Below, piece after piece: positions 1-31,088 of a DNA stretch of 64,000 bases (its first letter is position 1; each line of letters begins with the position of its first letter). The stretch is from Alphaproteobacteria bacterium. Lineage in GTDB: Bacteria > Pseudomonadota > Alphaproteobacteria > Rs-D84. The notes under the pieces are model-generated. The model saw nothing but the letters and a program-made list of their open reading frames with translations. It did no database searches and was not told the origin of the DNA. The stretch spans positions 82,964 through 146,963 of the forward strand of contig SUUM01000002.1 of assembly GCA_015062525.1 (NCBI GenBank). Direction: 5' to 3'. A program made the translations under genes and the position numbers.

Positions 1-6
1 GATAAA

Positions 7-20
7 AAAGTGTATGACAT
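7..20. repeat. 14-bp direct repeat aaagtgtatgacat (left copy). Putative attL core of the 7-kb element; the right copy is at 7019-7032
   Basis: Exact 14-mer repeated at 7019-7032 (18/19 identity including flanks). It sits immediately upstream of the integrase gene. A gtaatac heptamer flanks both copies (24-30 and 7012-7018). Confidence 0.5.
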
Positions 21-1567: not shown

Positions 1568-1735
1568 TTCAGATTTAATTCCAGATTTGTCGAACCATAA
1601 ATAATAATAAATTACCCTTAAAAAAGTGTTCCAGGGTATCCAGTGTCAAATTTTAATGGTTTCTGTATGGTTCTATATGGGTCCGAAACGAAGAATTTAC
1701 GATTTTTTTCTAACAAACCAGCGCAGAATACAAAT

Positions 1736-2377
1736 TTACTTTTTTACATGTTTTTGAAATGATATTTGATGCAGATCAGAAATCAAATTTTTACCTTTAT
1801 AATTTTTTTCAAATTTTTTAAAGATATCAATCTGTTTGATAAAATCATCAGTATCAACATACCAGGTGTAATTATATTTATCAAATGCGTCAAACACAAT
1901 AATATCAATTTCTTTTCTGTGCTTTTTTATCCATTTATATACAGTTTCAAAATCAATATATAAAAACGTATCATTTTTTGCTATTTCGTGTATTTCACGA
2001 ATGGATAAAAATACACTAAAAAACTTGTTATTATCACTCGTTGTAATTTTTGGCACAACATTCACATTTTTCATATACAAATAATCAGTATTTTTGCAAT
2101 CTGGTAATTTTATAATACTTTTGTCGTTTGTTCCAGGGGGATAAATAGCACCAACTGGGATTAACATTTCAGAGTGCACCAACAGGGATAAAAAATACAT
2201 TAAACTTTCTGAATCCTTAAATGTTATAAATTCGGATAATGCACTAGATAACGTTCCACACAAATAATCTGTATGTTTTTCTTTGTGAATAATACAGTAA
2301 TCAAACTCATATTCAAAATCTTTGAAATGATTTTCATCCATTACATACATTGGTAAAGATTTTTTTAAATTTGACAT
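1736..2377 (-). CDS. Hypothetical protein; third gene of the nuclease operon
   Basis: 213-aa ORF lying 3 nt downstream of the GIY-YIG gene on the same strand. No recognisable motif. Confidence 0.5.
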   Translation of the reverse strand: MSNLKKSLPMYVMDENHFKDFEYEFDYCIIHKEKHTDYLCGTLSSALSEFITFKDSESLMYFLSLLVHSEMLIPVGAIYPPGTNDKSIIKLPDCKNTDYLYMKNVNVVPKITTSDNNKFFSVFLSIREIHEIAKNDTFLYIDFETVYKWIKKHRKEIDIIVFDAFDKYNYTWYVDTDDFIKQIDIFKKFEKNYKGKNLISDLHQISFQKHVKK

Positions 2378-2380
2378 ACT

Positions 2381-3370
2381 CTAATTATCATTATAACCAA
2401 AATCCCGAGTTTTTAAAACTTCTTTCCAATAATTTTCACGTTCTAGTGCTTTGGTTTTCCCTAACTCTGTCTTTGGAAATATTTCCATTATACTATATTG
2501 AAAGTTATCCTTAATATATTTAATCCCTTTTGTTTTAACTAATTCTTTTAATTTTTTATTTGGATAATCCTTGTTTGTGTCATCATAACCTTTATTCAGA
2601 TAAACAGACCAACGGCCATAAATTCCATTGTTTCCTGTTGCAGAACCTATGTATTGTTTCCCTGTATTCATATCTGTTAACACATATACACCAAACACAT
2701 TACTTAAATTCTCTTTCCAATCTCTGCTGTCTATCACTCGTTTCAAAGAATTATAATCTTTTCTAACGTTTTCATATCCAGTAAACTTTTCTTCCATATT
2801 TAAATATGGTTCTGGTAAAATTTCTGACACAACAACACTATTTATAACATCATCTGATGTATAATAAAATTGTTGGGGCTTGTTTGTGAAATTAACCACT
2901 AAACGACCATTAAACGATTCAAACTCTTTTAATTTTTTTGCGTTAGCATACCTGAAGTGTTCGTGTTTTACTTCATTAAAACCGTCTGCGTTTAAATCAA
3001 TAATTTGGTAAGCACCTATAAATAACCATTTATGAGTATCTATTTCTATAAATTCAAAAACAACATCTTCTAAACTTAACCGTTTCTTTTTTCCTGAACC
3101 CATAGACAATATAGCTTGGTCAAGAAACTTATCCTTATTCAGATACATTGTTTTAAAATCACGTATCTTTCTTACTTTCTTGCCATGTTCCTGAATTTCA
3201 TCTTGCCAAGATATATTAAACCTTAATTTACGTCGTTTGGTTGGGTAATTATTTTCAAAATTATTCTTATTAAGTCCGAATAAGATGTCAACTAGATGTA
3301 ATTCAGTATTCATATTATACCCTTTAATCGTTTGATTCTGGATATGGATAAGTTTCATCATAAATATCAC
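2381..3370 (-). CDS. GIY-YIG nuclease domain protein with an unknown ~200-aa N-terminal domain
   Basis: The C-terminus reads FGVYVLTDMNTGKQYIGSATGNNGIYGRWSVY...ENYWKEVLKTR, a canonical GIY...YIG...R...E...N arrangement. It overlaps the upstream gene by ~47 nt. Confidence 0.65.
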   Translation of the reverse strand: MIFMMKLIHIQNQTIKGYNMNTELHLVDILFGLNKNNFENNYPTKRRKLRFNISWQDEIQEHGKKVRKIRDFKTMYLNKDKFLDQAILSMGSGKKKRLSLEDVVFEFIEIDTHKWLFIGAYQIIDLNADGFNEVKHEHFRYANAKKLKEFESFNGRLVVNFTNKPQQFYYTSDDVINSVVVSEILPEPYLNMEEKFTGYENVRKDYNSLKRVIDSRDWKENLSNVFGVYVLTDMNTGKQYIGSATGNNGIYGRWSVYLNKGYDDTNKDYPNKKLKELVKTKGIKYIKDNFQYSIMEIFPKTELGKTKALERENYWKEVLKTRDFGYNDN

Positions 3371-3953
3371 GTAAATTTTTATTATTATAAGTCCAGTATT
3401 GACCTGGTTGAACGTAATACGGTAAATCCAATAATTCCTTTGTTAAAGCACTTAATGCGTATTCTTTATCATTATATAATACCTTTTTAGGACCAATAAC
3501 ACTAATTTTAATATCTGGGTCTTTTACATAAAACAATTCTGAACCGACAGGAATTCCCATTTCTTCAAAATTAAATTGCGGTCTGTGGAATTGTTTAGCA
3601 GCAGACTTTTCTGCATCAGATATATTACGAAACAAAGCATCCTGAACAGTATTTGTTATTTCACTTGTTGAAAATTCCTTTAATAAAGGGATAACTTGGT
3701 CGGGTGCAACATTGAAAAATTCACGTTTCGGGTTAACACGTTTATCCCGAAAAGCATTATGAATAATTTGTTCAATTGTTGTGCAATCTTTAACTTCACC
3801 AGCCCATAAACATTGAAAAGGGAACGGAACACCAGTTGAATATAATTCGGACATTCTGGCATTCAAATCTTTACGTTGTGTTTTTCCAATTTTTATTAAA
3901 TTCGGCATACCTTCATTAGCCAACACATAAACAATATTATATTTATCAGTCAT
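3324..3953 (-). CDS. T5orf172 / MUG113-type (GIY-YIG-like) domain protein with a C-terminal extension
   Basis: The N-terminus YNIVYVLANEGMPNLIKIGKT...ELYSTGVPFPF...EVKD...EQIIHNAF...REFF matches the conserved T5orf172 pattern (VYVL..KIG.T, STGVP.PF). Confidence 0.65.
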   Translation of the reverse strand: MTDKYNIVYVLANEGMPNLIKIGKTQRKDLNARMSELYSTGVPFPFQCLWAGEVKDCTTIEQIIHNAFRDKRVNPKREFFNVAPDQVIPLLKEFSTSEITNTVQDALFRNISDAEKSAAKQFHRPQFNFEEMGIPVGSELFYVKDPDIKISVIGPKKVLYNDKEYALSALTKELLDLPYYVQPGQYWTYNNKNLRDIYDETYPYPESND

Positions 3954-4102
3954 AATACATCCCTTTGTTATGATTATATTTTAATATACTTTGGGACTCG
4001 ATTCAATCCCATTTTGCATAAAAATATGATTTTTTACTTATTAGGGTTTACATTTTATTATTCACCCTTTATAATGTATTTTACATAAACAAGGTAAAAC
4101 AA

Positions 4103-4675
4103 ATGAAAAAAATTGTATTTATGGTCTTTTTGGTCTTTAATACCCTGTGTGCAAATGCTCAGGACGGATTTACTTTTTCACAAAATATCAGTAAATTGAA
4201 AAATTTAGATTTACATAATAACGACGCAGAGTTTACCCAAGAACAAAAGGAACAAAAACAAGTCAAAGTTTCTTTTTATAATACACTGTATAAAACCTGT
4301 ATTGATAATGGCAAACAAAGAATTAAACAAAAACAACCACTTGATAACGAAACACTTTATATGCTTGAAAAAGTGTGTGATTGTTATACTTTGACTATGA
4401 TGGACAAAGTTGATTGGAAAAAATTAAAAAATATGACAGGAAACGAAATTGATTCTTACCTGGCGACTTTCCATACAGAAGTAAAAGATGAATGTAGTGA
4501 AAGATTTAAAGATAGACCTGTTTATCAAGATAATAACACAAAAAATACAACACCTGAAAATATAAAAAACAAAGTCGATAACATAACGGGAAAAATTTTA
4601 GCGGGAATAATTTTTTCTTTAATTTTTACCCTGATAGCATGGTTGATAAGTAAAGCCATTAAAACAGATAAATAA
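4103..4675 (+). CDS. Secreted, C-terminally membrane-anchored hypothetical protein
   Basis: Signal peptide MKKIVFMVFLVFNTLCANAQ, scattered Cys residues, and a C-terminal TM helix ILAGIIFSLIFTLIAWLI. Confidence 0.5.
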   Translation: MKKIVFMVFLVFNTLCANAQDGFTFSQNISKLKNLDLHNNDAEFTQEQKEQKQVKVSFYNTLYKTCIDNGKQRIKQKQPLDNETLYMLEKVCDCYTLTMMDKVDWKKLKNMTGNEIDSYLATFHTEVKDECSERFKDRPVYQDNNTKNTTPENIKNKVDNITGKILAGIIFSLIFTLIAWLISKAIKTDK

Positions 4676-4843
4676 AATTGTAATAAATTTCATTTTTTAG
4701 TATGCGACAGGGTATTTTTGTATTATAATAGTAATAATAATGGGGTGTTGTGTAAATTTTCAGACACCCCATTTTTTTATTAAATACCCGTTTACGAATG
4801 GTCGTTTTTTTATTATAATCTTTTCGCAGACACAGAAAGATAG

Positions 4844-5050
4844 TTGACGAAAATGAAAAAAATAATGTATGCAAAACAAAGTGGTAATCAGGTCAGTTTA
4901 TACGACAGTTCAAACCGTGAATATTGTCGTGTTAATGGACAATTGGTATCATATACATCAGATTTTGTTATAACAAGTGGTGGAATATTTAGCACCCATA
5001 ACCACGTATATGATTCAAATGGTAAATGGGTTCGTGACGTGCAAAAATAA
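4844..5050 (+). CDS. Small hypothetical protein (68 aa)
   Basis: ORF only, in an AT-rich island. Confidence 0.25.
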   Translation: MTKMKKIMYAKQSGNQVSLYDSSNREYCRVNGQLVSYTSDFVITSGGIFSTHNHVYDSNGKWVRDVQK

Positions 5051-5057
5051 CAATTTA

Positions 5058-5579
5058 TTATTGTTTTGGTCTTTTATACGGAATATTAAATAATTGTTCA
5101 GATGTGAATAACCTAATTGAGTCAAAATGTTGATGGTTATCAGTTAAAATTTCTTTGCTGTTATACCCAGCAAGATTTTCAGGTGTTCGGTTTATGTTTT
5201 GCACGTCTATTGCCCTGGACGGCATTTTGTGTAAGTGCATAATAATTTCACAAGCACGTTGTATTTGTTCCAATGTATGATTGGGTGCTGTTAAATGAAT
5301 ATGAAAATGACACACGTGTTTTTTACCCAGTTCGATTACACCACGAAAACGTAAGTGGTGTCTGTTCCAATGTAGCCCACCTAATATACGTTCAAGGTCC
5401 AATAAAATGGGGTGCAATATATCAAGTGCTTTATACATATCAGATGTTTCAGAAAAAAGTGGTAAACGAATACACAAATAATGTGTGGGGTTATTTTCGT
5501 TTAAGAAGTCAATAAGTTGTGGAAGTATTTTAAGATATTGTTGTTTTGTATAAAAAGTGTCTGTTATGAATTTTTTCAT
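5058..5579 (-). CDS. Hypothetical protein with HUH-endonuclease-like motifs; possible rolling-circle Rep
   Basis: Three motifs in the canonical Rep order and spacing: YLCIRLP (motif 1-like), CHFHIHLT (HuHuuu), and AGYNSKE (YxxK). Confidence 0.4.
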   Translation of the reverse strand: MKKFITDTFYTKQQYLKILPQLIDFLNENNPTHYLCIRLPLFSETSDMYKALDILHPILLDLERILGGLHWNRHHLRFRGVIELGKKHVCHFHIHLTAPNHTLEQIQRACEIIMHLHKMPSRAIDVQNINRTPENLAGYNSKEILTDNHQHFDSIRLFTSEQLFNIPYKRPKQ

Positions 5580-6033
5580 TTTATTATTCCTGTATGTTGT
5601 GCCCCATAAAGTAATGTGTGTATTATTAAATTATGGGGTGTGTTAATTGTTATAATGTATTGTTTTTATTATATTTTTTATTTGTTGTTTTAATTATAGG
5701 TGTATTTGTCACTTGGGGTTCGTGCCCTTAAAAAAATATACCGATAATGCCCGACATTATTTTTCAAGACGTCTATTCATTAAGTCCATAATGTCCAATA
5801 ATGTCGTTTACACACACCATCAAATACTTATCAGGTGTGATATTTATACGCACCGTAACGTAAAGGCGTTTTTTCACCATACCCGGGGTCAGATACCCCA
5901 AAAATAATCACTCCATAGGTTGATAAGACACAAAACGGTTAAAATGTGTCTTTTAATAAATTGGGTAAAATAGTATCTGTTTGGGGGCTGTAAATTATAA
6001 ACCGACCATTACAAGCCCCCAACCTGTTATAAA

Positions 6034-6594
6034 TTAGACAAGATTGGTACGTAAACCATAATCCGTATTTAATCTTAGTTCTTTATAAAGGTCTATGCCA
6101 TCACGAATACTTTTCATTCGTTTGGGGTTTGTGTGGGTATATTTTGACCACAGATTCAATTCACATTGTTTGTGTGTGTCTATCAAAGCCACGTTTTCTT
6201 TGACCAAATGTATTTCAATTGTGGTCGTATCCAGCATAAAATCCAATATAACTATTTTACCAAAATCATGTGTTGGTAACTGTTCAGCACTATCAAATAC
6301 AACTGCAACGGATTGATGTAAACTGTTTATATAATTTATCATGTGATAGAATGTTTTATCATCATCCAATGGATTGCATTCTAAAAATGTTTTTATAATT
6401 ACCAGATCTTTATCAAAACAATATTTTGCAGTTCTAAATAATTGAGGTGTTAACGTATCGTTTTCATCCCCAGGGAAACAGGGATTTTGACTTGCAAATA
6501 TAATTGCATCAAAATAATTACTCATGTTTAATACCTTTGACTTAAATTCGGTCGTTTTGTTGTTTTCTGACCGAAAATGTTGATTGGAATCCAA
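6034..6594 (-). CDS. Hypothetical protein
   Basis: 186-aa ORF in the AT-rich island; no motif recognised. Confidence 0.4.
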   Translation of the reverse strand: MDSNQHFRSENNKTTEFKSKVLNMSNYFDAIIFASQNPCFPGDENDTLTPQLFRTAKYCFDKDLVIIKTFLECNPLDDDKTFYHMINYINSLHQSVAVVFDSAEQLPTHDFGKIVILDFMLDTTTIEIHLVKENVALIDTHKQCELNLWSKYTHTNPKRMKSIRDGIDLYKELRLNTDYGLRTNLV

Positions 6595-7018
6595 AGGACA
6601 TCAAAAAGGGACAAATGTTAAAAAACGACAAAAATAATCATACCGATATTTTTTTGATGACAAAGGTATTTGATTTGTTTTTGGATTTTATTTTGATTTG
6701 ACCCCACTTGGTGTCTTTTGGGGTTAATAAAAAATAGGTTCGGTTATGGGACAAAATTTATCACCCCATATATATTAGAACTATTTTTTTTACGTTTTTA
6801 ACGCTTGTTAGACTTTATAAATGTCATTTTTTTGCATTTTTTTTGATTTTTATGGTATTATGATACCAAAATCCCAAATTTTATGACTCCGTTGATAAAA
6901 CATCCTTGAAACAGTGGTCGATTGACCCAAAAAATATAAAAACTGGGTTCACGACCATAAAAACCCGTTTACATTATCAAAAAAATGGTATATAATCCGT
7001 ATCAAGAAAGTGTAATAC

Positions 7019-7227: not shown

Positions 7228-7262
7228 TTTAAAAACCACCCACTGGGGTGGTTTTTTATTGT
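7228..7262. terminator. Bidirectional intrinsic terminator (aaaaaccaccc actg gggtggtttttt)
   Basis: GC stem flanked by A-run and T-run, directly downstream of zapA (minus strand). Confidence 0.6.
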
Positions 7263-7534
7263 GTAATCTTGTGCTTAATCTCGCGTATTCGGGCCAGGAT
7301 TTCCTTCAAATCGGCATCTGTTGCGACGGCTTCTGGTTTGTTGTTCACCTCGTCAGCAAGGACAATACACAACGTCGCCAACAATGAACTTTCGGGCAGG
7401 GGCCCAATCTTGTCCAGAATCTGGCGCGCGCGCGCGTCAACCATTTTACCCAATTCAATCAGGCGCCCTTCCTGTCCATCTTCGCACCCCATTGGGTAAT
7501 TTTTATTTACAATCGGAATGGAAACAACACTCAT
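7256..7534 (-). CDS. zapA: Cell division protein ZapA
   Basis: N-terminal ...IVNKNYPMGCEDGQEGRLIELGKMVDARARQI resembles alphaproteobacterial ZapA (NYRMGCEDGQE). 92 aa. Confidence 0.7.
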   Translation of the reverse strand: MSVVSIPIVNKNYPMGCEDGQEGRLIELGKMVDARARQILDKIGPLPESSLLATLCIVLADEVNNKPEAVATDADLKEILARIREIKHKITQ

Positions 7535-7743: not shown

Positions 7744-7825
7744 ATCTTCAGTTTAAGACATTTTTTATATGCGTTCAACCCTAAAATGTGATATAATACG
7801 ACCATATACTGTGGGGGATGAATTT

Positions 7826-8806
7826 ATGAAGACCAAAATAATCTATATTTCCGGTAATGAAGTGTTTGAAATGTCTGAAATTCGCGCGGCATTTGATTCT
7901 GTGCGGGCCACGTTGGGGCTGGATAACGATACAATTTTATTTGGTGTTCCGGTTGACGCGGACAATGCATTATCAAATGTTGATATTACCACGCCAAGTA
8001 CGGAACCGATTGTTGAAACGGTGGTTATGCCGGCCGCAGAACCGGTTGTTGAATCAATTACAGAACCTGTTATTGAACCTGTTGTTGATGTTCAGTCATT
8101 GACCGCGGTGGACCCCGAACCGATTTCCCCAGATGAAGATATTGCCCCCCAGGAATCAGAACCTGTGATTCCAATTTTATCCATTTTATCTGCCCAGGAA
8201 ACGTCAATCGAACCCGAAATAAAAGCGGTCGCAGAACCTGTCGCAGAACCGATTGTGGAAACGGTTGCAGAACCCGTGGTGGAATCTGTGGAAGCGGCCG
8301 TGGCCCCCGCCACAGAAATTGTTGAAACCGCAATTATTTCGGATATTAACGTTAATGCGGAATTGTCTGCCCCGGTCAATGAAGATGATGCAACGGTTGA
8401 AACAATTACAATTGGCGACATGATTACGGATGATGCACCGGTTCCGCAAATGGAAAAAACGTTGGAAGAATTGTTGGAAACCATGGCACCCCTGCGCGAA
8501 GATGTTCAGCCCGAACCGGCACCTGAAATTTCCACCGATATTTTTGATGGCGACGATACGGATGCTACATTGGCGCAATTGGCAACCGAATTTGCCGACA
8601 CCCAGGATAAAATCCCCGCCACCCCACGTGCGACCGCGACGGGCAAAATTGGTAAATTAAAAAACATTTTACCATTCAAAAAGGCTAAACGCGATGACAA
8701 CGGTTTGATGGGCGATTTGTTTGGTTGGGCGGGTATTGCGGCCAACGATGATGATTTTACCATGCCTGGTTTTTTTACACCTGCGTCGAAAAAGCAGGGC
8801 GCATAA
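7826..8806 (+). CDS. Acidic, repeat-containing hypothetical protein
   Basis: Start chosen at MKTKIIYISG after a GGGGGA RBS. Body has AEPVVE/EPIVETV-type acidic repeats and a basic C-terminus. The ORF itself begins at 7769. Confidence 0.5.
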   Translation: MKTKIIYISGNEVFEMSEIRAAFDSVRATLGLDNDTILFGVPVDADNALSNVDITTPSTEPIVETVVMPAAEPVVESITEPVIEPVVDVQSLTAVDPEPISPDEDIAPQESEPVIPILSILSAQETSIEPEIKAVAEPVAEPIVETVAEPVVESVEAAVAPATEIVETAIISDINVNAELSAPVNEDDATVETITIGDMITDDAPVPQMEKTLEELLETMAPLREDVQPEPAPEISTDIFDGDDTDATLAQLATEFADTQDKIPATPRATATGKIGKLKNILPFKKAKRDDNGLMGDLFGWAGIAANDDDFTMPGFFTPASKKQGA

Positions 8807-12348: not shown

Positions 12349-13590
12349 ATGATGAATATTTTTATCATGATTTTGGTGGCGCTGTTTATGGCGGGATACT
12401 ATCTGATGGATTCGCCCAGTCAAACTGTTGCCAAACATGAAACGGAATATGCCGTGTCTCGTTCTGACTTGCGTACTGTGGCCCAGTGTGCAACCGCTTT
12501 ACACAATGCCCAGATTAATGGCACAGAATTTAACGATATTTGTATTGAACAAAATGGTCTGGTCAGTGAATTTATCTGCCTGGACAATAAATTAAAAATC
12601 ACCAACTGTGAAATTGTTAAAAATAAAAAGCCGGCATTTAGTTATATCATTACTGCAACCCATCCAATTGACGTCAACGACCATAATGCAATGATGGAGG
12701 TGCTTGAAACTCATTACGCCGATGCCGGGACATTTGGATTGCTAAATGATGGTATGATAATGTCTGGTGGGACATCCTTGCGTCGTCAAATCCCTGCGGA
12801 AATTGTCAAAAATATGGAATTGGTGGACGGGCAATTGGTGTATTTAACCCAGTATGAAATCCCAGATGCGGGAACTGTTTATGATATTGCACCGACCCCT
12901 GACGTAATTTGTCCCGTTGGCACGGCCAAGGCATATCGTTTCGGTCGCTGGCAATGTGTGGGCTATAACACCAAAACAGATTGTGGTGGTGATATGATAT
13001 GGGATTCTGATTTATACGAATGTGTAGCGGACGAATCTCGCAAACCCCTGTGTGCAGATGCCCAGACGGCGGTTATGGTGGACAGTGTTTGGGAATGTAT
13101 TGACCCATTTCCCGATAAAATTTGTCCGGACAAAATGGTTGCGCGCCTGAATTATAATACGTTGGAATGGGAATGTGTGATGGACCCGTCTGCAACCACA
13201 AATGCTAAAAAGTGTACACATATAACATCCGGTGCGGTCTATGGTGCATTGGGTGCAACGTTGCGTGTTCCGCAAACTTCTTGTACGGACTGTGAACGTA
13301 TGGTTGTTGACAATGACACATGTACAGCAACCTGTGTACCGGACCCGGCGCGCTTGAACGATACGCGTTGTTATCCGGGCGTTGCCACCGAATGCAGCGG
13401 TCCAACACGTGCATTTTATTTTGGATTTCCATCGTCTGGTTACATTGAATCGGTCGAAGCGGTGGCGAATGTTTCGGTTCCATTGGGCAAATCATATGCC
13501 CAGAATCGTCGTTTTAATTGCCTGGATTGTGGTGCGGGCGAAATAGACGCGTCGCGTTCCATGCCACCATACGTTGCTGTGTGTAAATAA
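12349..13590 (+). CDS. Cysteine-rich secreted or membrane-anchored repeat protein
   Basis: N-terminal TM/signal, ~30 Cys, and recurring W(E/Q)C(V/I) motifs (RWQCVG, LYECVAD, VWECIDP, LEWECVMDP). Confidence 0.55.
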   Translation: MMNIFIMILVALFMAGYYLMDSPSQTVAKHETEYAVSRSDLRTVAQCATALHNAQINGTEFNDICIEQNGLVSEFICLDNKLKITNCEIVKNKKPAFSYIITATHPIDVNDHNAMMEVLETHYADAGTFGLLNDGMIMSGGTSLRRQIPAEIVKNMELVDGQLVYLTQYEIPDAGTVYDIAPTPDVICPVGTAKAYRFGRWQCVGYNTKTDCGGDMIWDSDLYECVADESRKPLCADAQTAVMVDSVWECIDPFPDKICPDKMVARLNYNTLEWECVMDPSATTNAKKCTHITSGAVYGALGATLRVPQTSCTDCERMVVDNDTCTATCVPDPARLNDTRCYPGVATECSGPTRAFYFGFPSSGYIESVEAVANVSVPLGKSYAQNRRFNCLDCGAGEIDASRSMPPYVAVCK

Positions 13591-13658: not shown

Positions 13659-14351
13659 ATGACAAAACACTTTCACGGCGCACTTAATCGCATGACTTTA
13701 TTTACCACAATATTGATTGTGGGTGTGCTGTATTTCTGGGCTGATTTTATGGCGATTTCGATTGCGAATATTTGGTTGAACGGAATAATTATTGGCACGA
13801 CTTTGTTTGGTATTGGACTGTGTTTTGTTTTGATGTTTGGTCTGTTGCCTGAATATAAATGGTTGCATGGGTACACAACTGGTCGTCGCGGATTAAAATT
13901 ACCGCCGGTTTTATTGCGCCCGGTTGCCCAAATGTTGTCATCACGTCCAAAGCGTATATCGGCGACAACCCTGAACGGTTTTATGGAAATGATTTTATTA
14001 AGATTCGAAGATTCGCGTGAATCGGTCCGCTATATCACAAACACATTAATTTTTCTGGGACTGTTGGGAACATTCTGGGGATTGATTTTGACGGTTGGTG
14101 GATTTGCAGAATTAATCGGCAACCTGAATTTTTCTGATGAAACCGTTTTGCAGTCTATGCAGGCGGGGCTGTCCCGTCCATTGGCGGGCATGGCGACCGC
14201 GTTCACCAGTTCTTTGCTTGGCCTGGGGGGCAGTTTGACGGTTGGATTCCTGGGGTTACAGGTTCAGACCGCCCAGAATATGATTTATCACGAACTGGAA
14301 GATTACCTGGCATCACACACACGCATTGCCACCCCGGATTCGGAAAGATAG
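13659..14351 (+). CDS. MotA/TolQ/ExbB-family proton-channel protein
   Basis: LGLLGTFWGLILTVGG core helix and TM topology typical of the family. Start placed after a GGGGGA RBS; the ORF itself begins at 13635. Confidence 0.7.
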   Translation: MTKHFHGALNRMTLFTTILIVGVLYFWADFMAISIANIWLNGIIIGTTLFGIGLCFVLMFGLLPEYKWLHGYTTGRRGLKLPPVLLRPVAQMLSSRPKRISATTLNGFMEMILLRFEDSRESVRYITNTLIFLGLLGTFWGLILTVGGFAELIGNLNFSDETVLQSMQAGLSRPLAGMATAFTSSLLGLGGSLTVGFLGLQVQTAQNMIYHELEDYLASHTRIATPDSER

Positions 14352-14379
14352 AATTACAAGAAAGAGAGAGAGCGTTATC

Positions 14380-15492
14380 ATGATGAACATTCGTTATCGT
14401 ACATCAACAAACCCATGGCCTGGATTCGTAGATTTGTTTTCGAATCTGGTAATCATTCTGATATTTTTAATGATTGTGTTTGTTTTTCTGTGGACAACGA
14501 CCAGTGTGTTTAACAAAACAACGGGTGCCAAAACCGTTGCTGAATTAAAGGCGACAAACGCAGAACAGGCCGAAACAATTGCCCAAATGACCATGGACGA
14601 GGCCGAAGCCAAACGTCTGTTAATTCTTGCACGCAACCAACTGGAAATCCTGGAAAAATCTAATGCGGACCTAAATAATGAATTAAACGAAGTTGATTTA
14701 AGTGTGTCCGAACTTATCACCGCGTACGAGGCCAAGGTACTTGAATTACAGGCCCAGGGCAACGACCTGCAAAAAATGGTGGCGGACCTGAATACGCAAT
14801 TAAATCAGGCGAACCTGGACAAAGAAAAAACTGCGGCCCTGGAACAGGAACGCAAGTTGCTTCAGGACGAAATGGAATCCCAGCGTATAAAGCTGTCTGA
14901 ACAATTGGCGAAATTACAGGCGGCCCTGGATGCGTCCGAAGAAAAATCCCGCGCCCAGGAAATTCAGTATGTTGAAATGTCAACGCGCCTGAATCGCGCC
15001 CTTGCGGACAAGGTTGCAGAATTAAAAGACATGTCCCAGTATCAGTCTGAATTTTACAAGGCTGTAAAAATCGCAATTGGGGACCGCACAACAATTCACA
15101 GCGATGGCGACCGCTTTGTCGTCAACAGCGACATTTTGTTCCCAAGTGGTTCGTATAAATTATCGGCGGACGGCAAACGCCAATTACACCTGATTGCAAA
15201 TGTGATTAAAGATATGGAAGAAAAAATCCCAACCGATGTTAATTGGATTATTCGCGTTGACGGTCATACTGATAAAAAACAGGTTATATCTGGCACGGCG
15301 GGCTATAAAAACAATACTGAATTGTCCCTGTTGCGTGCAACGGCGGTTGCAAATGAATTGGCAAATGCAGGTGTGTCGCCACGTCGCCTGGTCCCCAGTG
15401 GCTTTGGCGATATGCATCCGGTGGAACTGGGCAACGACCCGGCGGCATTACAAAAAAATCGTCGCATAGAATTACAACTAACCAATCAATAA
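14380..15492 (+). CDS. MotB/OmpA-like protein with a long central coiled coil
   Basis: N-terminal TM WPGFVDLFSNLVIILIFLMIVFV. The C-terminal OmpA_C-like domain reads FPSGSYKLS...LLRATAVANEL...NRRIELQL. The ~230 aa between them is heptad-rich. Confidence 0.7.
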   Translation: MMNIRYRTSTNPWPGFVDLFSNLVIILIFLMIVFVFLWTTTSVFNKTTGAKTVAELKATNAEQAETIAQMTMDEAEAKRLLILARNQLEILEKSNADLNNELNEVDLSVSELITAYEAKVLELQAQGNDLQKMVADLNTQLNQANLDKEKTAALEQERKLLQDEMESQRIKLSEQLAKLQAALDASEEKSRAQEIQYVEMSTRLNRALADKVAELKDMSQYQSEFYKAVKIAIGDRTTIHSDGDRFVVNSDILFPSGSYKLSADGKRQLHLIANVIKDMEEKIPTDVNWIIRVDGHTDKKQVISGTAGYKNNTELSLLRATAVANELANAGVSPRRLVPSGFGDMHPVELGNDPAALQKNRRIELQLTNQ

Positions 15493-15516
15493 AAACACCC
15501 GCCACTGGCGGGTTTT
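15490..15516 (+). terminator. Intrinsic terminator (acacccgccactggcgggtttttc)
   Basis: Stem-loop plus T-run 3' of the MotB-like gene. Confidence 0.55.
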
Positions 15517-15527
15517 TCTTTTTTATG

Positions 15528-16025
15528 CTATTCAGTTATTGCATCATTGGTTGCGTCGCCTGATTTCGTCGTGTGGTCGTTAATATTTGTGCCACAGTTT
15601 TTCTGTATCATATCTGCCACATGAATGCTTTGCGCCCAGTCGCGCGCACTTGGCACCGCGCATGGGTCGCAGTCCACGCGAATTTGCCCCACATGGCACG
15701 TAAAGGCAACGTCCTGACATATGCCATATGTACGCGTTGTGATAACCTGGTTTAAATAATTTTCTGCAATTGTCCAGTACTTTTCTGGGACGGCACCCGG
15801 GTCGTATGCCCACATGCGCGCCACCATATCTCGGGTACGCTGAACACATGGGTCGGAATCTTTGACGTGAATCACATTGGTTGATACATTATTTTCCGGA
15901 TTGGGGTTATTATTTTTTATCATTACCCATGCAATTATCGCTATGCTAAATCCGACAACCAGAAACAGTAAAATATAGTGCGCTATACTGAATGCACTGG
16001 TATTTGTTTTGAATTTCTTTGCCAT
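15528..16025 (-). CDS. Membrane-anchored hypothetical protein
   Basis: Start at MAKKFKT after an AGGGG RBS; single TM (ILLFLVVGFSIAIIAWVMI); Cys-containing periplasmic part. Confidence 0.45.
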   Translation of the reverse strand: MAKKFKTNTSAFSIAHYILLFLVVGFSIAIIAWVMIKNNNPNPENNVSTNVIHVKDSDPCVQRTRDMVARMWAYDPGAVPEKYWTIAENYLNQVITTRTYGICQDVAFTCHVGQIRVDCDPCAVPSARDWAQSIHVADMIQKNCGTNINDHTTKSGDATNDAITE

Positions 16026-16165
16026 ATTGTGCCCCTGTCTTTTTTTTAATTTTATCACAGCTGCCCACGGCAAAATACGGATTTATATTCCCAGAATTTA
16101 TTGCAAAAGAAATTTTTTTGCGATAACATAACGCGAGTTTGAATTTCAGCCAAAAGGGGGATGCC

Positions 16166-22744: not shown

Positions 22745-22942
22745 ATGAAACGAATAATACGCGGTGGATACCTGTCTGGGTATCGTACATACATAATTTC
22801 TGCAACGGGTATTTTGTCAGCCATTGGTGCATACCTGGTTGGCGATACAGATTTGTTCACAATGTTGCAGGCAATATTTACATTGGCTGGAATATATTTT
22901 CTGCGCCGTTCAAACGAAACCAAAGGAAAAAATAATGGATAA
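22745..22942 (+). CDS. Small two-TM membrane protein (holin-like)
   Basis: Two hydrophobic helices and a charged C-terminus, immediately after the putative endolysin. Confidence 0.35.
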   Translation: MKRIIRGGYLSGYRTYIISATGILSAIGAYLVGDTDLFTMLQAIFTLAGIYFLRRSNETKGKNNG

Positions 22943-23591
22943 CATCCCAGAAAAATTTCGCAACAATGATGGAACATTGAATACAGATGCGTTAATGCGA
23001 TCTTATAATGAATTGGAAAAAAAGATTGGCACAATGGTATCGATTCCAAATGAAAATTCAGATGATGCTGCGCGCCAAAAATTTAATCGTGCAATTGGTG
23101 TTCCGGACAGTGCATCTGAATATCCGACCAATGAATTATATGATGATGAAAATCTGCGTCAAAAATTTTTTGAAATAGGTTTAACAAAACACCAGGTGGA
23201 AAAAATTTATGATATAGCGAACGATTTTTTATCACCAGTAATTTCAGAATTGTTTGCCGCGCGTGATGATGTATCTGCGATGAATGAATTAAAAAATTTC
23301 TTTGGTGGCGATGAAAAAATGCTAGATGCATTGCGTGCGATAAACACATTTGGTGAACGTTTTTTACCACAAGATGCATTTGAATCATTGTGCGCCACAC
23401 CCCAGGGAATTCAAAGCGTGTACAAGATGATGCAATCAATGGAACCAAATATTAAAACAGACAAAAACGAAAATGAAAATTTATCAGATTCTGATTTGCG
23501 TCGCATGATGCGTGATCCAAAATATTGGCGTGATGGTGATACAGAATACATTCGAAAAATAGAAAACGGTTTCAAAAAATTGTATTCATAA
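22935..23591 (+). CDS. Putative phage head scaffolding protein
   Basis: N-terminal MDNIPEKFRNNDGTLNTDALMRSYNELEKKIG matches the IPEKF..DG..D.DAL.KSY.ELEKK scaffold signature of podovirus-like phages. Acidic and helical. Confidence 0.5.
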   Translation: MDNIPEKFRNNDGTLNTDALMRSYNELEKKIGTMVSIPNENSDDAARQKFNRAIGVPDSASEYPTNELYDDENLRQKFFEIGLTKHQVEKIYDIANDFLSPVISELFAARDDVSAMNELKNFFGGDEKMLDALRAINTFGERFLPQDAFESLCATPQGIQSVYKMMQSMEPNIKTDKNENENLSDSDLRRMMRDPKYWRDGDTEYIRKIENGFKKLYS

Positions 23592-23703
23592 TTTACAATA
23601 ATGCACTTTCTGCTTTACTAAGTTTTGTAATTACGATAAAATGTAATCAAGAACAAAACAGATTTGTTCTGTCCAAAACTTTTTATATTGAAGGAGAGAA
23701 AGA

Positions 23704-24165
23704 ATGGCATTCTTGTTTAAAAGAAAAACAGCAAAGAAAGTAGTTGCTGAAAAACCAGCGGCAAAACCAGCAGCAAAGAAAGCACCTGCAAAAAAAGTAG
23801 CTGCAAAACCAGTTGCGAAAAAAGCACCTGCTAAAAAAGTGGCTGCAAAACCAGTTGCGAAAAAAGCACCTGCAAAGAAAGTAGCGGCAAAACCAGTTGC
23901 AAAGAAAGCGCCTGCAAAAAAGGTAGCGGCAAAACCAGTTGCAAAGAAAGCACCTGCAAAAAAAGTAGCGGCAAAACCAGTTGCAAAGAAAGCACCTGCT
24001 AAAAAAGTAGCTGCAAAACCAGTTGCGAAGAAAGCACCCGCTAAAAAAGCAGCGGCAAAACCAGTTGCGAAAAAAGCACCTGCAAAAAAAGTAGCGGCAA
24101 AACCAGCTGTTAAAAAAGCATGTGCAAAAAAAACATGTGCAAAAAAAGTTTGCAAGAAAAAATAA
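23704..24165 (+). CDS. Lys/Ala-rich tandem-repeat basic protein (histone H1-like)
   Basis: ~9 copies of the 14-aa unit [14 protein letters not shown] (42-nt DNA repeats at 23790-24110); Cys-containing basic C-terminus; terminator at 24179-24200. Confidence 0.65.
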
Positions 24166-24380
24166 TATCAATTATTAACCCCGCATCTGCGGGGTTTTTT
24201 AATAAAAGTATCAGTCAGATATTTGCGCAGGTCTGACTGATATTTTTTATGGATAATCCGCACCTGCGGACCCTAAAACTTTTTGTCTGATGGCGCATTT
24301 TATGCACAACCAAAATACAAAATATTTTGCGGTGCCGTACATTGGCACCTGTGTTTAATTTTATACCAAAGGATTTTTTT

Positions 24381-25202
24381 ATGTCTGTTTCCATCGATAA
24401 TGTATTTGTGAAACAATTCGAGGCTGATGTTCATTTAGCGTACCAGCAAATGGGCACAAAACTGCGTTCCACGGTTCGCAGTAAATCGGGTGTCGTCGGT
24501 GCATCCACTACATTTCAAAAGGTTGGTCGTGGCACGGCCAGCACCAAATCACGTCATGGTATTGTGCCTGTGATGAATCTGAATCACGAACCGGTTGAAT
24601 GTATGTTGGCTGATTATTACGCGGGCGATTGGGTTGACGCATTGGATGAATTAAAGGTAAATATTGATGAACGTCGTGTTGTTGCATCTGCGGGCGCATA
24701 TGCCCTGGGGCGCAAGACCGATGAATTAATCGTGTCGGCCATGAACAATGCAACGGCAAATGTTGGAGATTATTCAACTGGTCTGACCAAAGATTTGATT
24801 TTATCGGCGGTCGAAGTCTTGAACACTAACGACGTCCCAGATGATGGTCGTCGTTTTGCGGTTGTTGGCGTACGCCAATGGAATGAACTGTTGTCAATGG
24901 ATGAATTCGTATCTGCCGATTACGTAGGTGATGCGTTGCCATTGTTGAACGGGGGCGTCGCACGCAAATGGTTGGGCATTACATGGGTTCTGTATAACGG
25001 TCTGCCGGGCACAGATACAAATCGCGATTGCTTTATCTATCACGCATCCAGCATCGGTCATGCCTGTGGCCAGGAAGTCAAAACGGATATCTCGTGGCAT
25101 GGTGAACGCGCTGCACACTTTATCAGCAACAGCATGTCCCAGGGTGCGGTCTTGATTGACGGCGATGGCATTGTCCGCGTTAAATGTTCGGATGCTGAAT
25201 AA
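24381..25202 (+). CDS. Putative phage major capsid protein
   Basis: The only call basis is its position immediately after the scaffold gene and its size (274 aa). Start at MSVSIDN after AAAGGA. Confidence 0.45.
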   Translation: MSVSIDNVFVKQFEADVHLAYQQMGTKLRSTVRSKSGVVGASTTFQKVGRGTASTKSRHGIVPVMNLNHEPVECMLADYYAGDWVDALDELKVNIDERRVVASAGAYALGRKTDELIVSAMNNATANVGDYSTGLTKDLILSAVEVLNTNDVPDDGRRFAVVGVRQWNELLSMDEFVSADYVGDALPLLNGGVARKWLGITWVLYNGLPGTDTNRDCFIYHASSIGHACGQEVKTDISWHGERAAHFISNSMSQGAVLIDGDGIVRVKCSDAE

Positions 25203-25242
25203 CACACTTTGAAATTCAACTTTTAACCAAAAGGAAACACAT

Positions 25243-25476
25243 ATGGCTTTTCAGAACAAGAATTTATCTGTCATCGCGTATGCAAATGGATTTACATTGT
25301 GGCATTATTGCGGCACATCTGAAACATTGGCAACAATTAGTGCCAACGGATATTTCAATGCGGTCAAAACATTGATGAACATTGGTGATATTATCATCAT
25401 CAACGCATCAGATAACACCGCGATTAAGAAAATTAATATCACAGACCTGAATGTGACAACGGTTGCATTGGCATAA
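25243..25476 (+). CDS. Small phage-cluster protein
   Basis: ORF with RBS; context only. Confidence 0.3.
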   Translation: MAFQNKNLSVIAYANGFTLWHYCGTSETLATISANGYFNAVKTLMNIGDIIIINASDNTAIKKINITDLNVTTVALA

Positions 25477-25557
25477 CATACTTTTTTTTCTCCTTTCCTT
25501 TAGGGGTCGGCAAAAATTTGCCGACCTTAAAACATTTATAAAACCAAAGGTGCAAAA

Positions 25558-26076
25558 ATGCTTACTAAAATAGACTTATGCTCTATGGCGTTATTAAAAA
25601 TTGGCGAAAGCCCAATTCAATCATTAACCGATGACAGCGCACCTGCGAAACTGGCACGTACATTGTTTGATACTGTGATGGATTCACTTATTTCCGCCCA
25701 CCCATGGCGTTTTGCAACCCAAGTTCTGGATTTAACCAAGAACACAGACGGCGATTTTTTAATTCCGACCAACGTTTTGCGCGTGTTAAAAACATCTGGA
25801 CGCATCAACGGAAACCGGGTTGTCTGCGATGGTGACACAACAACAATAACAGCCGTTGTAAAAACGTCCCCAGAATCATATCCGGGATATTTTGTATCCC
25901 TGGCGGCGACACGCCTGGCGATGGAATTTTGTATTCCGTTAATGGGGGATCAAACAGTATTTCGCATGTTGGCGGCATTGTATGAAACAGAATTACAAAC
26001 CGCAAAGTTCATAGACAGTACAACTGCCACATCTGATGGTATATCTGATTTTTCATTAATTAACGCACGCTTTTAA
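25558..26076 (+). CDS. Phage structural protein, hypothetical
   Basis: Context only. Confidence 0.35.
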   Translation: MLTKIDLCSMALLKIGESPIQSLTDDSAPAKLARTLFDTVMDSLISAHPWRFATQVLDLTKNTDGDFLIPTNVLRVLKTSGRINGNRVVCDGDTTTITAVVKTSPESYPGYFVSLAATRLAMEFCIPLMGDQTVFRMLAALYETELQTAKFIDSTTATSDGISDFSLINARF

Positions 26077-26093
26077 TTTGGGGGATTTATCAC

Positions 26094-27809
26094 ATGGCAG
26101 ATTTTATTAAAACACAAAATTCATTTGCAAATGGTGCGGTTGCGCCCGAATTCTATGCGCGCGATAATATCAACGGCCTGTCCAGATTGGAAAATATGGA
26201 TGTTTTGGCGGGTGGCGGTCTGTCGCGTCGGTGCGGATTGCGTGATATAATTTCGTTGCGGGGACCGGCACGTTTAATACCTTTTTCCGTGTCAGATGGC
26301 GAAGAGTATATTCTTGCAATAACTGATTTTTATATTGGTATATACCAAGACGGCATACGCACTCAATCGCTAAAGACCCCATGGTCATATAATGATGCCA
26401 TGCATCTGCAATATGCCCAGCGTTTTGGAACAATGATATTTGTACATCCTGATTATCAGCCACAAACATTGTATAAATCAGGCGACACATTTTGTTTTCG
26501 TGAATTTGAATTTTCGCGCAACGATGCGGATATGACGGTTAATATGCCATTTGTAAAGTTTGATGATGCATCCGACATAAAAATAACGGTCAGCGCCCAT
26601 TCATCTGGCAATAACTATGCAACGTTCACCACAAACGCAGATTTTTGGACGCCTGAAAATGTTGGCGGTCGTCTGCATTTATTGACACGTCAATGGCAAA
26701 TCACAGAATACATCAGTCCGACACAGGTCGTTGTTCATACAAATGGCACCTATACTTTGCCGAACGCGGCTGTATCTGATTGGCGCGAGTGTGCATTCAG
26801 CACGCGTCGCGGTTGGCCACGCAGTATTACATTTCACCAAGATAGATTGGTGTTTGGTGGTTCGCGTTCATGGCCGGCGGGAATATGGCTGTCGCGTGTT
26901 GGACAACATAATAACTTTGACACTGGTACTGGTCTGGATGACGAAGCGATATTTATATCTTTATTATCGGCACAACGTCAACAAATTTGCACCGTCGTCA
27001 GCAGTGATTCATTACAAATCCTGACCAATGTCGGTGAATGGGCTATTTCCAGCAAGCCTTTAACCCCATCTGTTGTTGATATTAAACAACACACATCAGT
27101 CGGTTCGTATGTTGCGCGTTATCTGCCACCCCAGAAAATCGAAGGCGCAACCGTATTTGTATCTACATCCGGTCATGATATACGCGAATTGGCATTGGAT
27201 GAACTGGGTGAAAAATATAACGCAAATGATTTATGTGCATTTTCCAAGCATTTGCTAAATAATCCGATTGATATGGCATATAATGATTCCACGCGCCAAT
27301 TGTTTGTTGTATTGGCGGATGGCACAATGTCTGTTTTGAACCAGAATGCGGCCCTGGGGATTTCTGCATGGGGCGCGTATAAAACCCGTGGTGAATTTTT
27401 ATCGGTTGCGGTTTGTGATGGGCATACGTATGTTGCAACACACCGTGAAGATGGTGTGCATTTGGAAAGATTTGATGCAGATACAATGACGGACGCAGGC
27501 AAGTACAGTTTTTCTTTTTATGCATCTGGTCTGCCTTTGCGCGCGTCCGGGCATAATGCCACGCGTCTGCGCCTGCGCAAGATAGTGGCGCGTGTTCTAA
27601 ACACTAAATCCATATCAATAAACAATCATCAAATAACCCTGCCAAATGAAATATATGCCCCCAACCATCCTGGATTCAGCGGCGATGTTTCCGTTGGTCT
27701 GTTGGGAACCAAGAACGATTGTATGACGCCAACATGGACAATTCATGGCAACGAAGATTATCCAATAACGGTACTTTCTGTCAGTTTGCACGGTTGGTAC
27801 TCGGTTTAA
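26094..27809 (+). CDS. Large phage structural protein (tail/tubular-type?), hypothetical
   Basis: 571-aa ORF downstream of the capsid gene; context only. Confidence 0.4.
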   Translation: MADFIKTQNSFANGAVAPEFYARDNINGLSRLENMDVLAGGGLSRRCGLRDIISLRGPARLIPFSVSDGEEYILAITDFYIGIYQDGIRTQSLKTPWSYNDAMHLQYAQRFGTMIFVHPDYQPQTLYKSGDTFCFREFEFSRNDADMTVNMPFVKFDDASDIKITVSAHSSGNNYATFTTNADFWTPENVGGRLHLLTRQWQITEYISPTQVVVHTNGTYTLPNAAVSDWRECAFSTRRGWPRSITFHQDRLVFGGSRSWPAGIWLSRVGQHNNFDTGTGLDDEAIFISLLSAQRQQICTVVSSDSLQILTNVGEWAISSKPLTPSVVDIKQHTSVGSYVARYLPPQKIEGATVFVSTSGHDIRELALDELGEKYNANDLCAFSKHLLNNPIDMAYNDSTRQLFVVLADGTMSVLNQNAALGISAWGAYKTRGEFLSVAVCDGHTYVATHREDGVHLERFDADTMTDAGKYSFSFYASGLPLRASGHNATRLRLRKIVARVLNTKSISINNHQITLPNEIYAPNHPGFSGDVSVGLLGTKNDCMTPTWTIHGNEDYPITVLSVSLHGWYSV

Positions 27810-27836
27810 CACACTATAAAATACAAGGACATAAAC

Positions 27837-28184
27837 ATGGGACAAGTTGTATCAGATATAACAGAAATCTTGGATTACAAAGACGCTAAAAAGGCGGCAA
27901 AAAACCAACGCCAGGAAATTATTGCACAAATGGCGGCGGATGAAGCGGAAAAAACAAATCTGGTGAAAAAGGCATTGGCAACCCAGCGTGCAAAATACGG
28001 TGCATCTGGCATGCGCACCGCCGGGATAACCGAAGGTGCGGTGTTGCGACGCTTGAAATCGGAAACCGCCGCCCCGTACGAAGAAAAACGTCGCAACAAT
28101 ATGACAAAATTAAAAAACGCGCGTGCTAAAAAGCCAAATTTATTGAAATCTTTACTATCCAGATTTGATGATTTGGTTGGTTAA
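27837..28184 (+). CDS. Basic hypothetical phage protein
   Basis: Context only. Confidence 0.3.
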   Translation: MGQVVSDITEILDYKDAKKAAKNQRQEIIAQMAADEAEKTNLVKKALATQRAKYGASGMRTAGITEGAVLRRLKSETAAPYEEKRRNNMTKLKNARAKKPNLLKSLLSRFDDLVG

Positions 28185-28203
28185 TATGTGATGGGGGTAT
28201 ACT

Positions 28204-29979: not shown

Positions 29980-30003
29980 AGGTTCTCTCTCCGTCTGTGT
30001 GTG

Positions 30004-31017: not shown

Positions 31018-31088
31018 ACTCCTAAATGACTAATACTTGACAAAATAATAGTCAATTTAAGTCCCCCGCGCAAGCAAATAATTATAAA

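Follow-up and report, generated by a model that had tools for sequence, protein, structure and literature searches.

Ion-driven motors of the 5:2 type are known to power flagella, gliding, type IX secretion, Ton uptake, Tol-Pal constriction, SiiE secretion, and Zorya defence. For MotAB and ZorAB, it is established that a wall-fixed B2 unit is surrounded by a turning ring of A subunits. In Zorya, the ZorA residues Thr147 and Ser184 contact the essential Asp26 of ZorB and are jointly needed for function, and every ZorA tail truncation tested abolished defence (PMC11946911). Here, we analyzed a gene pair, A and B, located in a stretch of 64,000 nucleotides, called the window, from an Alphaproteobacteria bacterium (GenBank assembly GCA_015062525.1, contig SUUM01000002.1, positions 82,964 to 146,963 of the forward strand). 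An earlier annotation made from the letters alone (the original prediction) had described it as an orphan pair of a MotA/ExbB-like and a MotB/OmpA-like protein. The pair probably encodes a peptidoglycan-anchored A5B2 motor, driven by the proton motive force and serving a housekeeping role in the envelope rather than defence. The features carrying this reading are listed below with their positions in the window.

13659-14351, plus strand: gene A, encoding a 230-amino-acid channel subunit with four transmembrane (TM) helices, ZorA/TolQ/ExbB-like, the tail-less form in its family
14070-14072, plus strand: codon of Thr138 of A, in the TM3 motif LGLLGTFWGL, an invariant column
14211-14213, plus strand: codon of Ser185 of A, in the TM4 motif AFTSSLLGL, an invariant column
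14380-15492, plus strand: gene B, encoding a 370-amino-acid protein of the PRK09039 type with an Asp-bearing TM helix, a long predicted helix, and an OmpA-type peptidoglycan-binding domain
14431-14433, plus strand: codon of Asp18 of B, in W-P-G-F-V-D at the cytoplasmic end of the TM helix
14515-15078, plus strand: predicted helical stalk of B (residues 46-233), a single helix in the AlphaFold2 model, assessed by periodicity, entropy, and substitution rates
15112-15489, plus strand: OmpA-like domain of B (residues 245-370; Pfam PF00691), with GHTD and N-x-x-L-S-x-x-R-A-x-x-V
15497-15523, plus strand: intrinsic terminator-like hairpin of 7 bp (6 GC) with a T-run, bidirectional

A Shine-Dalgarno-like motif (GGGGGA) is found 8-9 nt 5′ of the ATG of gene A. 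Gene A ends with a TAG stop codon and is followed by a spacer of 28 nt, in which a purine-rich stretch lies ahead of the start of gene B, whose product begins with MMNIRY. The hairpin begins 5 nt past the stop codon of B and is legible as a terminator on either strand. A and B look like a bicistronic unit closed by a terminator after B; the coordinates and gene calls of the original prediction were right for both genes, judged by the open reading frames (ORFs), the Shine-Dalgarno-like motif, and the terminator. Substitution rates were determined against the closest relatives, which come from pig-gut metagenomes. The ratio of nonsynonymous to synonymous rates (dN/dS) was about 0.05 for gene A and also for gene B, and the pair is therefore far more than a chance combination of ORFs: both are functional genes under strong purifying selection. 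Within B, the helical middle reached a dN/dS of 0.07, while the TM part was the most constrained with 0.018.

Protein A contains four hydrophobic helices (approximately residues 12-36, 38-66, 126-153, and 175-200), with a loop of about 60 residues (67-125) between helices 2 and 3. Positive charges ahead of helix 1 and in the 67-125 loop predict, according to the positive-inside rule, that both termini are cytoplasmic. An AlphaFold2 model built from 27 diverse homologs was confident, with a mean predicted local distance difference test score (pLDDT) of 90 and a predicted template modelling score (pTM) of 0.82. In a Foldseek comparison of this model with the PDB, all of the best 50 matches were ZorA, TolQ, ExbB, MotA, or PomA chains (probabilities 0.72-1.00). 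The type I ZorA 8vvn from Shewanella (chain 8vvn_D) came out on top, followed by TolQ and ExbB of E. coli and Acinetobacter (e.g., TolQ 9ddm and ExbB 5sv1). Template modelling scores (TM-scores) reached up to 0.58 for TolQ and ExbB, while MotA and PomA gave 0.28-0.38, the poorest among the motors (compared to 0.47-0.58). As modelled, A has the channel-subunit fold of 5:2 ion-driven motors.

Sequence profiles pointed in the direction of ZorA as well. The PADLOC profile ZorA1 matched A over TM3-TM4 with an E-value of 5.8e-13. With NCBIfam, ZorA_4 gave a weak match far under its cutoff, and the scores of the ZorA models were below the curated cutoffs (NF033917, 27 bits vs. 500; NF033915, 16.8 bits vs. 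100). A full-length profile of the A family, searched against PDB sequences, was discarded because it returned mostly unrelated coiled coils drawn in by the tails of the relatives of A.

The residues expected in an ion path are present in A. Invariant in the A family are G134, G137, T138, and G141 of TM3 (LGLLGTFWGL) as well as F182, S185, and G188 of TM4 (AFxSSLxGL). In a hidden Markov model (HMM) alignment to ZorA (8vvn and 8qyh), T138 of A falls on the GT of the motif holding ZorA Thr147, and S185 falls on the Ser of the AFLTSV motif, i.e., Ser184 of EcZorA. When all six frames of the window were searched for a GLLGTxxG-type motif, gene A was its sole carrier. The earlier description of A as a compact four-TM protein of the MotA/TolQ/ExbB type was borne out by the ZorA profiles, this motif, and the AlphaFold2/Foldseek result.

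Protein B begins with a short, basic N-terminus, followed by W13-P-G-F-V-D18 leading into the single TM helix. All 71 members of the B family with an intact N-terminus carry the motif W-P-[GA]-[FYW]-V-D, and Asp18 occupies the position of MotB Asp32 and ZorB Asp26; the conserved Asp, for which a check had been proposed, is thus there and invariant. At the other end of the protein, Pfam detected an OmpA domain at residues 254-362 (E = 1.4e-15), in agreement with the proposed combination of a single MotB-like TM helix and a C-terminal OmpA domain. Among PDB sequences, this domain comes closest to Pal and to the domains with which MotS, PomB, and MotB bind peptidoglycan. Its peptidoglycan-binding motifs GHTD (295-298) and N-x-x-L-S-x-x-R-A-x-x-V (312-323) are intact, and the columns G295, H296, T297, D298, N312, L315, S316, R319, A320, and V323 are invariant. 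The C-terminal part of B also matched PADLOC ZorB3 (E = 8.6e-19). The comparison with Zorya profiles called for in the original prediction was therefore positive for PADLOC ZorA1 and ZorB3, while the NCBIfam ZorA models remained far below their cutoffs.

Between these two parts, the AlphaFold2 model of B, built as a monomer from 33 close homologs, consists of one uninterrupted helix (residues 19-233), of which about 190 residues extend past the membrane, and an OmpA-type alpha/beta domain follows at residues 245-370. The stalk contains zero prolines and two glycines. Its local entropy is 2.85 bits per 12-mer compared to 3.04 bits in the OmpA domain. A periodicity of 3.5 residues is significant only at about residues 74-143 (z = 2.0-2.8); for the whole stalk, 144 of 2000 shuffles reached the observed periodicity power. 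A coiled coil of about 230 residues had been proposed for this segment. A long helix under selection is indeed predicted, but it comprises about 190 residues with heptads restricted to about residues 74-143, so that the segment is better called a helical stalk with a canonical coiled-coil portion. That the region might be of low complexity was tested and rejected on the basis of its entropy, the lack of proline, and the dN/dS of 0.07. An antiparallel hairpin was considered as well and found unsupported, as the monomer model shows a straight helix with a pLDDT of 80-90 across the sole mid-stalk glycine.

B belongs to a family that is already catalogued. Residues 9-370 align to positions 12-349 of the 350 positions of NCBIfam NF006543 (PRK09039) with an E-value of 8.3e-74. 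The score of 249.5 bits is below the curated equivalog cutoff of 305, and B is thus a divergent branch of the PRK09039 family. Four sister models also match B with E-values of 1e-49 to 1e-57 (the family comprises NF006543-NF006546 and NF006542). PRK09039 is listed in NCBIfam as 'peptidoglycan-binding protein' with no function attached. The B family is therefore already known to NCBI, and the finding is a 'known unknown'.

Homologs are numerous: 2302 were found for B and, in a word-indexed search, 6056 for A. An exhaustive search of 50%-identity representatives yielded 1702 matches for A, 163 of them at E < 1e-30; the names of cluster members were uninformative ('hypothetical', 'MotA', 'ExbB/TolQ'). 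In a scan using one genome per species, relatives of A were confirmed in at least 578 species, the closest being from Candidatus Enterousia sp. (88%). Linkage and neighbourhoods were counted in the best 80 species loci of these. Nearly all of them are from Alphaproteobacteria, with a few labelled gamma, beta, or delta, and they include Rhodobacteraceae/Paracoccaceae, Hyphomicrobiales, Rhodospirillales, Acetobacteraceae, Kordiimonadaceae, and Sphingomonadales. A B homolog is located directly downstream of A on the same strand in 74 of the 80 loci. In the remaining six, contig ends or ORF calls truncate the locus so that linkage is not judgeable, and in the judgeable loci A and B were never seen apart.

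The linker between the TM helix and the OmpA domain varies strongly in the B family, with a minimum of 160, a median of 210, and a maximum of 902 residues, the last in a Paracoccaceae B protein of about 1070-1090 residues. B homologs of Paracoccaceae and relatives (loci L057, L067, L052, L078, and L064) comprise 780-1091 residues, and their helical linkers of 600-900 residues would far exceed any periplasm width.

In mainstream Alphaproteobacteria, the pair sits in a fixed locus of the order gap-pgk ... thiE-like - efp - suhB - A - B, followed by a convergent ATP-binding cassette (ABC) exporter gene. A suhB-type inositol monophosphatase gene is found upstream of A in 43 loci, and efp, the thiE-like gene, pgk, and the ABC exporter are recurrent. 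The same gene order is present in the annotated record of S. meliloti, where the pair is LZK74_31000 ('MotA/TolQ/ExbB proton channel family protein', 368 amino acids) and LZK74_30995 ('peptidoglycan-binding protein', 342 amino acids). The S. meliloti replicon (L084; CP090106.1; 3.7 Mb) is filed as a 'pSymB' plasmid, yet it has the core genes purE, rpmE, and tolQ. Judged from linkage and distribution of the homologs, A-B is a conserved core two-gene module of Alphaproteobacteria that appears to be vertically inherited, and the pair in the window is one ordinary, though tail-less, member. The term 'orphan' hence had to be given up, both for this synteny and for the presence of B in NCBIfam PRK09039, while the suggested look at neighbourhood conservation gave a positive answer in the adjacency of A and B and in the fixed locus.

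In 13 of the mainstream alphaproteobacterial loci (cluster 11; e.g., L050 6849-7847), the gene immediately preceding A, in the same orientation, codes for a Pro/Ala-rich protein with an OmpA-like C-terminal domain of its own. This protein, absent from the window, may act as a third component in the lineages that have it.

Protein A of the window is short for its family. A homologs mostly comprise 350-400 residues, some up to 614, and most carry a helical tail past TM4, predicted to be cytoplasmic, with a median length of 149 residues. The PADLOC profiles ZorA1 and ZorA3 extend into the tail of these relatives, corresponding to the start of the ZorA tail. In the window, A ends about 10-30 residues past TM4 and is tail-less, as are its nearest relatives (230-268 residues). 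Two somewhat more distant Enterousia-like genomes (L007 and L008) have kept tails of 161-171 residues, which indicates that the loss was recent and specific to the lineage near Candidatus Enterousia. Across species, tail length of A and stalk length of B are correlated (Spearman 0.55). In the family as a whole, both subunits thus have a helical extension, which is cytoplasmic in A and presumably periplasmic in B. The architecture had been called reversed relative to Zorya, where the coiled coil is on the A subunit; this applies to the tail-less lineage of the window, whereas most A proteins of the family have a ZorA-like tail of about 150 residues.

Several other functions were weighed for the pair. 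A periplasmic spacer or a passive tether linking the inner membrane to peptidoglycan, with B as a strut and A as a non-conducting partner lacking motor activity, would fit the long rod-like helix with its OmpA domain. Also the variation of stalk length between lineages (160-902 residues), which recalls structural or ruler proteins, and the loss of the A tail in this lineage are in line with it. Nevertheless, we consider a tether unlikely: the Asp of B and the Thr, Ser, and Gly residues of TM3 and TM4 of A are invariant over more than 70 species-level members, a pattern typical of an active ion path, the TM part is the most constrained part of B, and the two genes stay together in all loci examined. 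Still less likely is a minimal or degenerate Zorya-type anti-phage system, in which a ZorAB-like motor would sense envelope perturbation and the effectors would be encoded elsewhere or be dispensable. The best profile matches of A are ZorA models (PADLOC ZorA1 and NCBIfam ZorA_4), B matches ZorB3, ZorA 8vvn is the top structural match with tailed relatives aligning into the ZorA tail, and the window also has mobile and phage-like DNA. On the other hand, PADLOC found zero defence-protein matches when run on the two flanking genes only, and there is no Zorya-effector-like ORF within about 10 kb, where the Pfam matches are to housekeeping families and the longest ORF encodes 472 amino acids. Furthermore, the NCBIfam ZorA scores are far too low (27 bits vs. 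500), A of the window lacks the tail whose truncation abolishes Zorya defence, ZorB is free of the linker that always has at least 160 residues in the A-B family, and a fixed housekeeping locus across Alphaproteobacteria differs from patchy islands. Defence, offered as one option in the original prediction, is hence improbable from the missing effector genes, the fixed chromosomal locus, and the housekeeping neighbours.

The roles of the classical energisers are very improbable for the pair. For an extra flagellar stator paralogous to MotAB/PomAB one may quote the labels 'MotA' or 'chemotaxis protein MotB' of relatives in some sources, the resemblance of the OmpA domain to MotS, PomB, and MotB, and the Asp at the MotB position; however, the A loop of about 60 residues is too short to accommodate a torque-generating domain as in MotA, the structural matches to MotA and PomA are the poorest (TM-score 0.28-0.38 vs. 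0.47-0.58), NCBIfam MotB, MotD, and MotS models score only 32-68 bits on B vs. cutoffs of 250-301, flagellar genes are missing from the scanned ORFs of the window and from the conserved locus, and a linker of 190 residues is unlike any flagellar stator. A divergent TolQR or ExbBD energiser of this organism has hardly better prospects. A finds some of its best structural matches in TolQ and ExbB, but B is of the MotB/ZorB type with an OmpA domain instead of a TolR/ExbD-type partner of about 140 residues, and no tolA, tolB, pal, tonB, or TonB-dependent receptor gene is adjacent to the pair in the window or in the S. meliloti locus. In addition, the S. meliloti replicon carries a separate annotated tolQ about 39 kb from A-B as well as a second TolQ/ExbB-like locus, and therefore in that genome at least A-B is not the Tol/Ton energiser. 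What holds of the functional proposals made earlier is a stator-like unit of the MotAB/ZorAB type, which neither by architecture nor by context is a flagellar, Tol, or Ton energiser.

The motor reading itself has to be held against a number of results that speak against it. A Pfam search left protein A unmatched, including MotA_ExbB (PF01618), for which the relatives of A score 17-24 bits at a gathering cutoff of 22.9; kinship with MotA/ExbB was therefore established via the AlphaFold2 structure, the ZorA profiles, and the GLLGTFWG motif instead. With an HMM of the A core, matches to ZorA and ExbB among PDB sequences were non-significant (best E = 0.58). The AlphaFold2 model of B is modest, as it is a monomer with a mean pLDDT of 70 (80-90 over residues 80-190) and a pTM of 0.39, and clear heptads cover only about 70 residues of the stalk. 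Moreover, ZorAB depends on its tail both to produce output and to assemble the TM motor (PMC11946911); A of the window has no such tail, and a tail-less ring may therefore work differently. A straight stalk would span about 28 nm (190 × 0.148 nm), i.e., roughly three times the distance of about 9 nm between inner membrane and peptidoglycan in E. coli (PMC11946911), and linkers in the family reach 902 residues. Therefore, a simple perpendicular 'stator post' cannot be right as drawn, and a stalk of the modelled kind must tilt, run along the wall, or reach the outer-membrane-proximal zone; the huge spread of stalk lengths also argues against a strict ruler. Finally, a literature search found no publication on the A-B family and, likewise, no experimental data on any of its members.

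For the motor considered most probable here, the following mechanism may be proposed. A and B would assemble in the inner membrane into an ion-driven motor of the MotAB/ExbBD/TolQR/ZorAB class, presumably as A5B2, with the two TM helices of B, each bearing Asp18, inside a ring of A subunits. Thr138 and Ser185 of A would gate proton access to Asp18 of B. By binding of its OmpA domain to peptidoglycan, B2 would become the fixed part, and proton flow would turn, or at least cycle, the A ring around it. In most lineages, the predicted cytoplasmic tail of A (about 150 residues) is the likely output element. Since the tail was lost in the lineage of the window, output would have to go via the membrane ring or the B stalk there. 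Candidate constitutive roles in the envelope are spacing, sensing of tension or of the wall, and division or polar growth, and the motor could couple the proton motive force to such a process at the wall or in the periplasm. The fixed housekeeping locus, the vertical distribution, the absence of effectors, and the retention in a gut lineage favour an envelope function and argue against defence; this physiological assignment is the weakest step of the explanation.

It is also possible, if more doubtful than the motor as such, that A-B is a new class-wide housekeeping 5:2 motor of Alphaproteobacteria with kinship to the Zorya sensor. In such a 'housekeeping ZorAB', the anchor would sit on a periplasmic stalk measuring between 24 and more than 100 nm, and the rotor would bear a short cytoplasmic tail in most lineages. 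A-B may represent the evolutionary stock of the Zorya defence motor, or the direction may have been the reverse, and the family therefore bears on the origin of the Zorya sensor motor. If this were true, a new function would be added to the short list of roles of 5:2 motors, together with a new architecture that unites an Asp-bearing TM helix, a very long stalk, and a peptidoglycan anchor in one chain. The pair occupies its fixed locus across a bacterial class including rhizobia and Rhodobacteraceae and has been kept in an uncultured gut lineage, and its presence in genetically tractable species such as S. meliloti makes it directly testable.

The flanks of the pair in the window differ from the pgk-thiE-efp-suhB context. 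Upstream, radC, map, holA, and an lptE-like gene are found in divergent orientation, and downstream corA, a gene for an LtaS-type sulfatase, and birA. The pair is directly bordered by two genes for Cys-rich proteins that are either membrane-bound or secreted.

12349-13590, plus strand: Cys-rich protein of 413 amino acids with an N-terminal hydrophobic segment, adjoining A
15528-16073, minus strand: Cys-rich protein of 181 amino acids with an N-terminal hydrophobic segment, adjoining B

Both were without match in Pfam, NCBIfam, and PADLOC. The original prediction had named a Cys-rich secreted protein and an unknown membrane protein as neighbours. The two were rejected as parts of the system, being no conserved partners: they stand beside A-B only in the pig-gut relatives L001-L003 and are absent in L004-L010. 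The Pfam scan of the window covered the ORFs called within 1-41 kb and, for 41-64 kb, the 10 largest. No flagellar, Tol-Pal, or TonB families turned up among these, in accordance with what had been stated for the neighbourhood.

Further parts of the window showed features of their own. Positions 1-7000 form a low-GC island (about 30% compared to 40-47% elsewhere) with genes for a phage-type integrase (14-1567, plus strand) and a T5orf172/MUG113-domain protein (3324-3953, minus strand); it is probably an integrated mobile element. Core genes resume after the island with ZapA (7256-7534, minus strand). At 7769-8806 (plus strand), a protein of 345 amino acids is encoded which mostly consists of acidic Pro/Glu/Val/Ile-rich repeats (EPV/EPI motifs); it had no family match at the threshold used and is 60% identical in L001. 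A cluster of phage-like or gene transfer agent (GTA)-like structural genes is located at 22824-35978 and includes genes for a T7-type capsid assembly protein, a capsid protein (24327-25202), a protein of 571 amino acids, a head-tail connector (33540-34775), and an Mtd_N-type fibre N-terminus. It is interrupted by genes for a helix-turn-helix regulator (30004-31017, minus strand) and DnaB (31089-32864, minus strand), and the pig-gut relatives L001-L003 have its first part at the corresponding position. A tandem repeat of 42-nt units (23731-24132; 9.6 copies, 88% match), located between the scaffold-like gene and the capsid gene, codes on the plus strand for a Lys/Ala/Pro-rich repeat of 14 amino acids.

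Compared to the described motors, A-B shares with MotAB/PomAB the two-gene unit, the Asp at the cytoplasmic end of the TM helix of B, the OmpA-like C-terminus, and an A subunit with four TM helices and both termini predicted inside. In MotA and PomA, however, TM2 and TM3 are separated by a large cytoplasmic domain that generates torque, whereas this loop has only about 60 residues in A of the window. The linker of about 190 residues in B stands against a plug plus linker of about 50 residues in MotB, as taken from the E. coli sequence quoted in PMC12505986. To TolQ and ExbB, the resemblance lies in fold and size of A (TM-score up to 0.58). TolQR-TolA-Pal and ExbBD-TonB also couple an inner-membrane motor to a long periplasmic element reaching the wall or outer-membrane layer. 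In these systems, peptidoglycan is bound by a protein of its own (Pal) and the long element is another one (TolA or TonB), whereas in A-B the TM helix with its Asp, the predicted stalk, and the binder are joined in one polypeptide; TolR and ExbD, with about 140 residues, are without the OmpA domain of B, which is of the MotB/ZorB type.

GldLM/PorLM, the motor of type IX secretion and gliding, and SiiAB are comparable as non-flagellar motors of the 5:2 type in which the B-like subunit bears the distinctive periplasmic part. GldM forms a long periplasm-spanning dimer, and SiiA has a MotB-like peptidoglycan-binding domain; the comparison draws on established knowledge as well as on PMC9389320 and PMC12204202. 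No sequence relationship of these systems to A-B was detected, and no secretion-system genes lie near the pair. The periplasmic part of GldM consists of globular domains and ends at outer-membrane machinery, while B ends in an OmpA domain. In keyword-matched passages of recent evolutionary surveys, one on MotAB relatives and another on periplasmic force transducers, the A-B family is unmentioned, and one of them states that non-flagellar B subunits lack OmpA-related domains.

The closest relative of A by profile and structure is ZorA, with ZorAB represented in the PDB by the 8qyd series and 8vvn. ZorA Thr147 and Ser184 have their counterparts in the Thr and Ser of A, and ZorB Asp26 in the Asp of B; both B subunits bear a peptidoglycan-binding domain, and a predicted cytoplasmic helical tail is found on A in most members of the family, though not in the window. 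The differences are nevertheless considerable. ZorA has three TM helices and a tail of about 500 residues (70 nm), whereas A of the window has four hydrophobic helices and none, and its relatives have about 150 residues. In ZorB, the peptidoglycan-binding domain is fused straight to the TM helix without a linker, in contrast to the helix of about 190 residues in B and at least 160 in the family. Zorya comprises effector genes (ZorC/ZorD, ZorE, or ZorF/ZorG), none of which was seen beside the pair in the window, and is distributed patchily in islands, whereas A-B is core and syntenic. As modelled, the pair is a distinct variant of these motors on two counts, with an anchor placed on a very long helical stalk and, in this lineage, a rotor without a cytoplasmic tail.

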